A stretch of 64,000 nucleotides of DNA from a bacterium ADurb.Bin243. Its GTDB lineage: Bacteria; Muiribacteriota; UBA9980. The translations under genes were made by a program, and so were the position numbers. Position 1 is the stretch's first letter. Each line of letters begins with the position of its first letter. The notes beneath the pieces are model-generated. The model was not told the DNA's origin and did not search any database. It was given only the letters and a program-made list of their open reading frames with translations. This document shows, in pieces, positions 1-1,674 of this stretch. Location: NCBI GenBank assembly GCA_002069765.1, contig MWBZ01000005.1:42214-106213 (forward strand), read 5' to 3'.

Positions 1-1674
1 TTTCCCTTTTATGGCGCCGGATCTTATGAGCTCGCCTATCGAATATGAAAGCTCGATGAAATCGAGTCCTTTTTCGCGGCAGAACCTTAGAAGTTTGGCG
101 GTCAGCTCTATGTCGTATATTTCGTTCATCGCGGCGAAGCCGGCTAAATGCTCGTATTCTATATAAGCGCTTTTCTGTTTTTTATCGTCGAGGTAAATGT
201 TTTTGCACTTTATAACGCAGTTTCTGGCGCAGGAAGCGCCGCATTCGCCCTTGCGTTTTATAACCGAATCGCGCAGAGCGGCCCCCGAAATTTTAGATAC
301 ACCCTGCGATTCGAACCGGGTGAAGAAAGCGAGCGGCAGGGCGCCGGTTTCGTAGAGCGGCATAATCAGCGAGGCCGTTCCGTAGGGCTTTATATGCTCT
401 TTGACGATATGGTTTTTATTTACGGCGTCGGCGAATAAAGCCAGCAGCCTTTCGTATTCATGTTTTTTATCGCCGGCGATATTGTCCCAGAAACCTTCGT
501 GCTCTTTCGTATCTATTACCACCGCGTTGAGTCCGAAATTTTTCATCAATAGCCCGAAGCCGCCTCCGAACTGGATTTCGGGAGAGCCGGAAACGTCGTC
601 GGCCGATACGGTCGCGATGGGAGAGTCGAAAGCCGCCATGGGCGACTGTATAAAATATGAAACGCCTTCGCCGTAAGCGGAGCGTATTCTGGCCGCGGCT
701 TCGTAAACGTTGAGCCCGAGATAGTTTTCGCCGGAAACTATCTGCACGCTGCCGGCGCTTATTTTTAAAAGATAGTGAAAACCTTCGGCCGGGCCTTCGA
801 TTATAAGAGCCGCGACTCCGAGCCTTGCGAGGGCGCGAGCGGCGCGTGAGGGCCGCGAAATAATTTTTACGTGTCCGTTGCGCGGATTTTTAGCCCCGAC
901 GCTGACTATGTCTGACGAGCTCAGATCGCTTGCCGCGAGCGCCGCGGGAGCGATTACCAGCCTGCCGGTTTCCGGCGAATGCAGGCTTTCAGGCGCAGTT
1001 TCCGAACAAATTACGGCGGAGCAAAGGGCGCGGCCGAATAAAAACGAGCGTTCTTTTTCATCCGCTTTTTCAAAAAGCGAAGCAACGGTTTCGAATTTTA
1101 CGCTGCGCTCTTTTAAATTAACCCTGACGATTTTATTTTCGAGATCTTCAGTGAAAGAATAAAGCGCCGAAGACGAACTGACGGAATTTAAGGAAATGAC
1201 CCTGTAGGGTATTTTTTTTAAGCTCAGGTAATGGCAGAGGCTGTCGCGTTCGAGATCGCTTAAAATAAGCTCGTTTACGGCGACGCGGACCGTCGCGCCT
1301 TTTGTCTTCTGGATCAGCGAGGCGATAAGGGCGTATTCGGCCTCGAAAATCTTTAAATCGCCGTCTTTTATGGTAAGGGCGTTGGGCGAGATTTCGATTA
1401 TAGAAGCCCCGGCCGCCGCCGCCGATTTAGCCTGCGCCGATTTTTCCTCCACGGACGAAAGTCCGTATGGAAAATCTATTATAGCGGCAATTTTTATGTT
1501 AGAGCCCTTGAGCTTTTCGGCCGCCTGCCTAATAAGAAAAGGCGGCACCAGTATTTCGACAAAGCCTGAAGCTCTGGCTTCTTCTATGAGATCGCCGAGG
1601 GCTTCGCGGGATACGCCCGCGGCTTTAATAAGAAAATTTGAAAAATCGAGAATTTCCGTTTTTGAAAAAATCAT
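1..1674 (-). CDS. Partial gene (N-terminal ~558 codons; C-terminus lies beyond window position 1). A DeoC-like domain (~190 aa) is fused to an aldehyde:ferredoxin oxidoreductase (AOR, tungsten/molybdopterin family) domain.
   Basis: Minus-strand frame is open from the ATG at 1674 down to position 1 and is missing from the ORF track only because there is no stop in the window. Hand translation gives MIFSKTEILDFSNFLIKAAGVSREALGDLIEEARASGFVEILVPPFLIRQAAEKL...IKIAAIIDFPYGLSS. This aligns with the true DeoC in the next gene ([10 protein letters not shown]...[15 protein letters not shown]...[10 protein letters not shown]). It is followed by IVRVNLKERSVKFETV...IEGPAEGFHYLLK...FGGGFGLLMKNFGLNAVVIDTKE...KPYGTASLIMPLYETGALP...CGASCARNC...EYEHLAGFAAMNEIYDIELTAKLLRFCREKGLDFIELSYSIG. 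These segments match the AOR N-terminal domain and Fe-S cysteine region block by block. The overlapping plus-strand ORFs at 148-1711 are antisense artefacts. Confidence 0.6.
   Translation of the reverse strand, partial: MIFSKTEILDFSNFLIKAAGVSREALGDLIEEARASGFVEILVPPFLIRQAAEKLKGSNIKIAAIIDFPYGLSSVEEKSAQAKSAAAAGASIIEISPNALTIKDGDLKIFEAEYALIASLIQKTKGATVRVAVNELILSDLERDSLCHYLSLKKIPYRVISLNSVSSSSALYSFTEDLENKIVRVNLKERSVKFETVASLFEKADEKERSFLFGRALCSAVICSETAPESLHSPETGRLVIAPAALAASDLSSSDIVSVGAKNPRNGHVKIISRPSRAARALARLGVAALIIEGPAEGFHYLLKISAGSVQIVSGENYLGLNVYEAAARIRSAYGEGVSYFIQSPMAAFDSPIATVSADDVSGSPEIQFGGGFGLLMKNFGLNAVVIDTKEHEGFWDNIAGDKKHEYERLLALFADAVNKNHIVKEHIKPYGTASLIMPLYETGALPLAFFTRFESQGVSKISGAALRDSVIKRKGECGASCARNCVIKCKNIYLDDKKQKSAYIEYEHLAGFAAMNEIYDIELTAKLLRFCREKGLDFIELSYSIGELIRSGAIKGK

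Follow-up and report, generated by a model that had tools for sequence, protein, structure and literature searches.

A conserved protein with DERA-like and AOR-like modules accompanies deoB in a reduced SPU-type microcompartment locus

Introduction

Metabolosomes are bacterial microcompartments (BMCs) defined by an aldehyde-producing signature enzyme and a core with a CoA-acylating aldehyde dehydrogenase (AldDH). The 64,000-nucleotide stretch analysed here (the window), from contig MWBZ01000005.1 of the uncultured bacterium ADurb.Bin243 (Muiribacteriota), carries a microcompartment locus that raises the question of what stands in for that core when it is missing. Genes for AldDH, PduL and PduS are absent from the operon, from the 64-kb window and from 10 kb downstream, and a gene at the window edge encodes a fusion of a deoxyribose-phosphate aldolase (DERA, DeoC)-like domain and an aldehyde:ferredoxin oxidoreductase (AOR)-like module. 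An initial annotation had proposed that this protein would be an unusual aldehyde sink, perhaps carried into the shell by a probably non-catalytic aldolase domain. We find that the fusion is real, conserved and under purifying selection, that both modules have lost residues characteristic of their parent enzymes, and that the protein may tentatively be read as one that links or organises enzymes of deoxyribose-phosphate metabolism.

Results

The fusion gene is open on the minus strand from an ATG at window position 1674 down to the window edge at position 1. All 558 codons read through without a stop, as initially transcribed, and their translation matches residues 1–558 of a 764-aa database protein (P0001) at 100% identity. 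The full gene was recovered from a public contig, and the window holds its 5′ 558 codons (Table 1). Samples from NCBI, JGI and Logan yield the identical 764-aa open reading frame on ten or more contigs, one of them the 159-kb JAKJHQ010000004.1 from an uncultured 'bacterium ADurb.Bin243'-type metagenome-assembled genome, and homologs of 764–770 aa with 47–90% identity share its architecture and synteny. These data identify a real and conserved DeoC-like/AOR-like fusion. Twelve such fusions are known, seven forming the window's clade and five more distant (P0019, P0063, P0074, P0103 and P0108; 696–734 aa) that share the truncated DeoC-like domain.

The N-terminal module of the fusion is a shortened relative of the genuine 497-aa DERA encoded next door, to which it is 30% identical over residues 29–148 (BLASTP, E 1e-16). 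Homology to this neighbour had been proposed for the first 190 residues and stands; the extent does not, as only about 150 residues correspond and the barrel is truncated. Profile evidence for a DeoC domain is likewise partial: the NCBIfam deoC model TIGR00126 matches residues 22–144 through profile positions 16–135 of 211 only, scoring 58 bits, below its curated cutoff of 117, and a Pfam search gave no PF01791 match to this domain at E ≤ 0.01. DERAs are the sole structural matches of the domain in Foldseek and superpose over 130–153 columns only (TM 0.55–0.59 of target), and its AlphaFold2 model contains five to six β–α units and no closed (β/α)8 barrel. The AOR N-domain (KIVRVNL...) begins directly after β6 of the DeoC-like part, and because the domain ends after this strand, the Lys201 and Gly204/Gly205 phosphate-site region of DERA has no counterpart in any fusion.

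The N-domains of all fusions were placed in one alignment with a pair of genuine DERAs and the E. coli enzyme, whose numbering fits at D102, K137, K167 and K201 and whose catalytic motifs are also found in both genuine DERAs. In the window's clade the Schiff-base Lys167 is replaced by valine, isoleucine or threonine, Asp102 by glutamate and Lys137 by arginine. The strand that reads FVKTSTGF in DERA reads YRVISLN here and holds no lysine after refined alignment, so the loss of the Schiff-base residue first noted from sequence alone is confirmed. With these three positions changed and β7–β8 absent, the proposal of a non-catalytic DeoC-like domain is strongly borne out, and the N-domain, about 60% of a DERA barrel, is by its sequence incapable of aldol cleavage. 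Residues 5–19 (window 1618–1662, minus strand), which correspond to strand β1 of real DERA, are predicted with low pLDDT (predicted local distance difference test) to form an N-terminal amphipathic helix, EILDFSNFLIKAAG; the pattern is conserved in the clade, and the modelled segment could be an encapsulation-peptide-like element.

The remainder of the protein has a complete AOR fold. In the window fragment both AOR domains score above their Pfam gathering thresholds, in support of the family assignment made from the bare sequence: AFOR_N (PF02730) spans residues 180–388 (4e-20, 72.8 bits versus a cutoff of 29.8) and AFOR_C (PF01314) starts at residue 417 (1.6e-17, 64.2 bits versus 27). An AlphaFold2 model built on a 123-sequence alignment reached a pLDDT of 90.4 and a predicted TM-score of 0.83; an earlier run on six homologs had a pLDDT of 44 and an unusable AOR part. 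Residues ~180–764 of the model form all three AOR domains, with TM 0.84–0.86 against 1AOR, 9G7J, 9MQX and 8C0Z in Foldseek, a root-mean-square deviation of 2.6–3.2 Å over ~608 columns and 21% identity. When 1.84 billion cluster representatives were searched exhaustively with a profile, 3450 relatives were recovered, and the top matches (at most 307 bits), one same-clade protein aside, are stand-alone AORs of ~565–580 aa that carry all canonical motifs (GR..V..KSPLTG, ESNxGG, GRGGxGAVMGSK, EYE, GADHTAG and DxxGxC). This bacterial ~570-aa tungsten AOR subfamily (P0009–P0100), whose solved relatives are the Clostridium autoethanogenum (9G7J) and Pyrococcus furiosus (1AOR) enzymes, shares the fold of the fusion and is ~30% identical to it, versus ~21% for the solved AORs. 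Unlike these AORs, the fusion has a 178-aa DERA-derived N-domain, and its gene lies between those for DERA and DeoB beside shell genes. Natural fusions also occur within the stand-alone subfamily (P0057, P0071, P0173 and P0198), where a canonical AOR is joined to an iron-type alcohol dehydrogenase (950 and 977 aa) or to a PF01042 RidA/YjgF-like domain (702 aa).

The Fe–S site of the AOR-like module is retained. The candidate cysteines C482, C486 and C490 were correctly recognised at the outset, and their C-x3-C-x3-C spacing had been noted to differ from the C-x2-C-x3-C of characterised AORs; we reject the view that it is anomalous because the nearest stand-alone AORs, which carry all cofactor motifs, have the same spacing (for example P0009, GHACHPGCVIRC), making it native to the closest genuine AOR subfamily. 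Together with the distal C674, which the subfamily also shares, these residues correspond to the [4Fe–4S] cysteines Cys288, 291, 295 and 494 in P. furiosus numbering and are invariant in the window's clade. The fusion further keeps the EYE motif with Glu313, Thr243, Tyr427, Asp343, Asp489 and the PxYDPR motif.

Other parts of the ancestral active site have been remodelled. To number residues we used a MAFFT alignment of 84 stand-alone AORs, the 12 fusions and 1AOR, the last rebuilt from a printed structure-database match alignment. The stand-alone AORs show conservation of 90% or more at 53 columns, of which the window's clade keeps 23, loses 23 and is mixed at 7. Losses cluster in domain-1 loops (R76, L85, T86, E91, N93, G95, G96, G167 and R182), with R186 deleted and A191, G194, K196 and K199 also gone; R76 becomes isoleucine, cysteine or serine, N93 serine or threonine, G95 proline, and R182 isoleucine or valine. 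Elsewhere, D/N338 is replaced by arginine, and GADHT reads GxEEKS, placing a glutamate at His448 in all seven clade members. The anchor-type positions R76, N93, G95, R182 and R186, like E91, D/N338 and H448, are 94–98% conserved in the 84 stand-alone relatives, and Arg76, Arg182 and Arg186 are said to bind the cofactor phosphates in the 1AOR structure. In AORs, main-chain contacts at Asn93 and Ala183 hold the Mg2+ that bridges both pterin phosphates, and Glu313, His448 and Tyr427 are universally conserved (2025 review, PMC12096430). Because near-invariant residues of the Asn93 and Ala183 loops are lost, the canonical anchor for the phosphate–Mg end of the cofactor is, as judged from the alignment, gone along with His448, while the Fe–S site and most second-shell residues remain.

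Comparison across the family suggests that part of this loss is old. All 12 fusions lack E91, N93, G95, R182, D/N338 and H448 and share Q422E, and because these changes are common to all, they point to one origin of the family with the losses already present in its ancestor. R186, G194, K196 and K199 are retained in distant fusions, so later decay is lineage-specific and complementary: the four Fe–S cysteines have all gone from P0074, P0103 and P0108, and Glu313 is gone from most distant fusions. A further metagenome profile scan yielded 80 loci, all stand-alone AORs with matches starting at about residue 160, and added no fusion contexts, so only a handful of lineages underlie the proposed association of an AldDH with a dead AOR site.

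The fusion is maintained by selection. Comparison with the 90%-identical relative L003, for which dS is ~0.35–0.7 and unsaturated, gave a dN/dS of 0.071 for the whole fusion (dS 0.65), with 0.096 for the DeoC-like part, 0.074 for AOR domain 1 and 0.056 for AOR domains 2/3; all three parts are under purifying selection. Neighbouring values are 0.021 for the DERA catalytic domain, 0.028 for RpiB and 0.038 for DeoB. No gene of the operon diverges faster than the fusion. Its identity is 49% in L011, where the DERA catalytic domain has 83%, DeoB 76% and the shell proteins 79–90%, and 23% in L010, where DERA, DeoB and RpiB have 44–60%. Because its dN/dS is low though above that of its neighbours, the gene encodes a functional protein under somewhat relaxed constraint and is not a pseudogene.

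The surrounding genes place the fusion in a microcompartment locus of a known type. SPU (sugar-phosphate utilisation) loci combine a pfam01791 DeoC aldolase and a pfam02502 RpiB with shell genes (Sutter 2021, PMC8217296; Axen 2014, PMC4207490), and this locus holds DeoC, RpiB, BMC-H and BMC-P genes in the order BMC-H, RpiB (with a C-terminal extension), BMC-P, BMC-P, BMC-H, the 497-aa DERA, the fusion and deoB. The fusion had been placed last in the BMC operon, which proved incorrect: deoB (401 aa; phosphopentomutase NF003766, 516 bits versus a cutoff of 256) follows 79 bp downstream on the same strand, and after it come genes for a 703-aa HEAT-repeat protein, a LysM/M23 peptidase and a TPR protein. 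The DeoC/RpiB pair, BMC-H, BMC-P and an encapsulation-peptide-like helix on DERA are shared with SPU loci; unlike them, the window locus has no AldDH, PduL, PduS or BMC-T and has the fusion protein. The 64-kb window contains no BMC-T gene, no molybdenum or tungsten cofactor biosynthesis genes and no tungstate transport genes, and the locus itself has no Fe–S shell protein or ferredoxin gene. A BMC-P of this organism appears in the tree of Sutter 2021 (PMC8217296) under the label 'SPUx (sat) (omitted)'. AOR-family proteins are not mentioned in the searched text and supplements of Axen 2014 (PMC4207490) and Sutter 2021 (PMC8217296), the latter of which also lack pfam02730 and pfam01314, and full-text searches turned up no relevant study that connects AOR with BMCs and none that connects AOR with Wallbacteria. 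We regard the locus as SPU-type, with a hitherto undescribed, probably accessory protein that apparently derives from two enzyme relics.

Related loci differ in their metabolosome genes around a stable core of neighbours. Five loci of the window's clade (L001, L002, L004, L011 and L012; 47–100% identity) have a reduced operon without AldDH, PduL, PduS and BMC-T. The L010 locus, whose fusion P0158 is a close relative of P0074, keeps the slot DeoC–[fusion]–DeoB–HEAT–M23 within a complete SPU locus that has PduL, AldDH, a PduS-like protein and BMC-T. In Ca. Wallbacteria (L008) the block fusion–DeoB–HEAT–M23 contains fusion P0019 and has no BMC gene within 10 kb. DeoB is the most constant neighbour of the fusion, which in SPU-type loci usually lies directly after DERA. 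Comparison of the block in L004 (12375–17090), L001, L002, L012, L010 and L008 showed that deoB, the ~700-aa HEAT-repeat gene, the LysM/M23 gene and sometimes the TPR gene follow the fusion in all lineages examined, including L008; the HEAT-repeat protein is 83–88% identical among close relatives and 28% only in distant loci.

Discussion

What, then, does the fusion do? Our preferred reading, at a little short of an even chance, is that it is a conserved non-AOR accessory protein that serves the deoxyribose-phosphate pathway, or its cargo, as adaptor or scaffold and whose Fe–S cluster is there for structure or sensing. On this model a two-module protein made from the relics of two enzymes would stand between the encapsulated DERA and DeoB of a reduced SPU-type locus and would no longer work as a canonical aldehyde:ferredoxin oxidoreductase. 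It would act mainly through protein–protein contacts, its DERA-derived half-barrel and normally dimeric AOR body tying DERA and DeoB together; where a shell is present it would organise these enzymes as cargo, and the window's clade would have retained the Fe–S cluster for structure or redox sensing. Parsimony favours this account because the cofactor anchor and His448 appear to have been lost in the ancestor and the redox apparatus then dropped in several lineages; those lineages keep the fusion in the same gene slot, one of them alongside a normal AldDH core. It is plausible that the DeoC-like domain pairs with DERA and so travels into the shell, as the initial annotation had suggested, although one lineage, L008, keeps the fusion–deoB block with no BMC genes within 10 kb.

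There are precedents for relics of this kind. CcmM of β-carboxysomes is an organiser with γ-carbonic-anhydrase-like and RbcS-like domains. GRM1 loci contain 'presumably catalytically defunct AldDHs' (Axen 2014, PMC4207490). As in those cases, a domain of a cargo or pathway enzyme is kept under selection among shell and cargo genes without its catalytic residues. Unlike them, the fusion, whose scaffolding role is putative, has no sequence relationship to either and is also found without adjacent BMC genes.

Several observations weigh against a purely structural role. Down to 47% identity, the window's clade is invariant at the four cysteines, T243, E311, Y312, E313, Y427, D343, D489 and Arg430, which would be odd for a pure scaffold and suggests that some ligand is still bound in what was the active-site cavity. 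Arginines newly conserved at R274, R277 and R533 might in principle form a phosphate site anew. In all five clade loci AldDH, PduL and PduS are missing although DERA has an encapsulation-peptide-like N-terminus; because these loci and the window lack them, some aldehyde sink would be needed, and an AOR would fit. The fusion–deoB block of L008 also indicates that a role restricted to microcompartments is not required.

These points feed a different and rather unlikely reading, in which the fusion is a still-working AOR with a remodelled pterin-phosphate site, recruited through its DERA-derived domain as the sink of an AldDH-, CoA- and NAD-independent metabolosome. The intact fold, the invariant active-site residues just listed, the new arginines of the remodelled loop and the missing AldDH, PduL and PduS would all be expected, as would the finding that the sole relative with AldDH in its locus has a plainly dead AOR site. 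They have to be set against the loss of R76, N93, G95, G96, R182, R186, K196, K199 and H448. The lost residues are 94–98% conserved in the 84 nearest AORs and present in five solved AOR/FOR sequences, His448 is universally conserved elsewhere (PMC12096430), and the shared losses are older than the lineages that later discarded the redox apparatus. The evolutionary rate is elevated, and the locus offers no BMC-T, Fe–S shell protein or ferredoxin gene. The idea of an unusual aldehyde sink is weakened both by the loss of the anchor residues and His448 and by the absence of Fe–S cysteines from a relative of the fusion in the SPU locus with AldDH, PduL and PduS. A specific version of this reading, which we consider improbable, is a CoA- and NAD+-free metabolosome in which acetaldehyde from DERA would be oxidised within the shell by a remodelled ferredoxin-type AOR that has a new pterin anchor and is recruited by the half-barrel; if true, it would account for the lack of AldDH, PduL and PduS in all loci of the clade. 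We also considered and rejected a GAPOR-like role acting on glyceraldehyde-3-phosphate, the other product of DERA, which has no specific support and meets the same objection over the cofactor anchor.

More doubtful is a third reading, in which the former cofactor cavity now serves another ligand or chemistry (for example a sugar phosphate, a nucleotide or Fe–S redox sensing) and the fusion, neither an AOR nor an inert scaffold, regulates or chaperones DeoB or DERA. Replaced positions are invariant in the clade (P275, R277, Q368, F369, E627, E628, K629, S630 and R533), ancestral active-site residues are retained, purifying selection acts on all three parts, and of all neighbourhood features the deoB linkage is the best conserved, also where BMC genes are missing, all of which would suit such a role. 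Sequence gives no ligand or activity, however, and the same cavity residues have changed differently in distant orthologs, which argues against one new site across the family. Finally, the chance that the gene is a decaying pseudogene, a mis-assembled chimera or two mis-called genes read through is negligible: catalytic residues are missing from both halves, but the identical reading frame on at least ten contigs and the purifying selection (dN/dS 0.07 at dS 0.65) rule out a pseudogene or chimera, and the syntenic homologs of unchanged architecture and the confident AlphaFold2 model argue likewise.

For microcompartment biology, the locus represents a conserved SPU-type variant from an uncultured candidate phylum in which the metabolosome core is absent and a selected protein derived from two relics is found in its place. 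If a scaffold, the fusion would play in a heterotrophic setting the part that organisers such as CcmM play in carboxysomes, and might offer a cargo-loading handle; if redox-active, it would give microcompartments their first example of an aldehyde sink linked to ferredoxin. Database names of the fusion proteins P0001, P0019 and P0004 ('Deoxyribose-phosphate aldolase 1', 'aldehyde ferredoxin oxidoreductase C-terminal domain-containing protein' and 'aldehyde:ferredoxin oxidoreductase') disagree with one another and are functionally misleading, and whichever reading holds, such annotations mislead metabolic reconstruction of these lineages.

Further features of the locus

Table 1. Positions of the fusion gene, its parts and neighbouring features in the window (MSA, multiple sequence alignment; MFE, minimum free energy)
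Feature	Position	Strand	Basis
Fusion gene, first 558 of 764 codons	1–1674	minus	Open frame; 100% identity to P0001; 3′ end past window edge
DeoC-derived N-domain, residues 1–178, truncated TIM barrel (~β2–β6 and one extra strand)	1141–1674	minus	TIGR00126, BLASTP, MSA, AlphaFold2 strands, Foldseek
YRVISLN, strand matching DERA FVKTSTG(F)	1186–1206	minus	MSA; Schiff-base Lys to Val/Ile
AOR domain-1-like region, residues 179–400, remodelled loops	475–1140	minus	Pfam AFOR_N; MSA with 1AOR numbering
SSSDIVSVGAKNP, Arg76 lost	883–924	minus	MSA with 1AOR numbering
IISRPSRAA in place of ESNxGG loop	838–864	minus	MSA with 1AOR numbering
IQFGGGFGLLMKN in place of RxxGRGGxGAVMGSK motif	538–576	minus	MSA with 1AOR numbering
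Start of AOR domains 2/3, residues 401–558	1–474	minus	Pfam AFOR_C; MSA
Fe–S motif C482-x3-C486-x3-C490	205–231	minus	MSA
EYEH, contains Glu313 equivalent	148–159	minus	MSA
FCREKGLD, Asp338 to Arg, Asp343 kept	61–84	minus	MSA
DERA–fusion intergenic region, hairpin	1675–1823	minus	Folding, MFE −40.4 kcal/mol, z = −3.8
DERA, catalytic residues intact, ~270-aa N-terminal extension	1824–3317	minus	TIGR00126, 288 bits vs 117; Pfam DeoC; MSA
BMC-H shell protein	3345–3629	minus	PF00936, 1e-29
BMC-P (EutN/CcmL) vertex protein	3710–4000	minus	PF03319, 2.5e-23
Second BMC-P, 95 aa in public contig, start overlaps RpiB stop	4039–4326	minus	PF03319, 1e-25
RpiB sugar-phosphate isomerase, C-terminal extension	4323–5009	minus	PF02502, 4e-53; NF004051, 176 bits
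BMC-H shell protein, first gene of the operon	5063–5347	minus	PF00936
Strong promoter-like site before first BMC-H	5423–5451	minus	Match 11/12

The 149-nt spacer between DERA and the fusion holds a 13-bp stem (AAGUCCGCGCUAA/UUAGCGCGGACUU) with a ~27-nt loop followed by AUUUUU, a hairpin missed by a standard terminator scan with a loop limit of 8 nt. It is kept in the 90%-identical L003 and absent in L001, L002 and L010, and the spacer is 19–38 nt in other relatives. By its sequence the hairpin may be an attenuator or terminator, and because other relatives have short spacers, the fusion–deoB unit may be partly uncoupled from the shell and DERA genes here while being tightly co-transcribed elsewhere.

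The DERA and RpiB proteins both carry additional segments. The N-extension of DERA starts with an encapsulation-peptide-like helix and continues with an α/β region that weakly matches the PF02441 flavoprotein family (6e-4, below cutoff); its GCMSCGHCV segment bears a weak likeness to the CopZ/HMA CxxC site (NCBIfam, E 0.011). The extension has no match in the PDB and no similarity to a 358-aa unknown protein of L010, where DeoC is only 268 aa and has the encapsulation-peptide-like helix alone at its N-terminus. The C-terminal extension of RpiB is ~85 aa long, and its end, TLIVKKGTLITSLALDMARKKGITV, weakly matches the C-terminus of the TIGR02536 'ethanolamine utilization protein' family (5.8e-4); RpiB of L010 (7657–8334) carries a similar tail, STIILPLAKDFINANKIEV, and this element may serve targeting or assembly.

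Divergent from the BMC operon, window positions 5566–8523 (plus strand) encode a 203-aa protein, an isochorismatase-like hydrolase (215 aa) and a 543-aa protein, the first and last without a family match; the 203-aa protein and the hydrolase occupy the same position in L001, L002 and L012. An acetate kinase gene (60355–61572, plus strand; PF00871, 1e-158) indicates that the organism can use acetyl-phosphate and, though the window has no PduL or Pta, implies an acetyl-CoA/acetyl-phosphate route somewhere. About 9 kb from the locus, a complete pstS-pstC-pstA-pstB(x2)-phoU-type operon (14794–19730, plus strand) would fit a lifestyle of nucleic-acid or phosphate scavenging.

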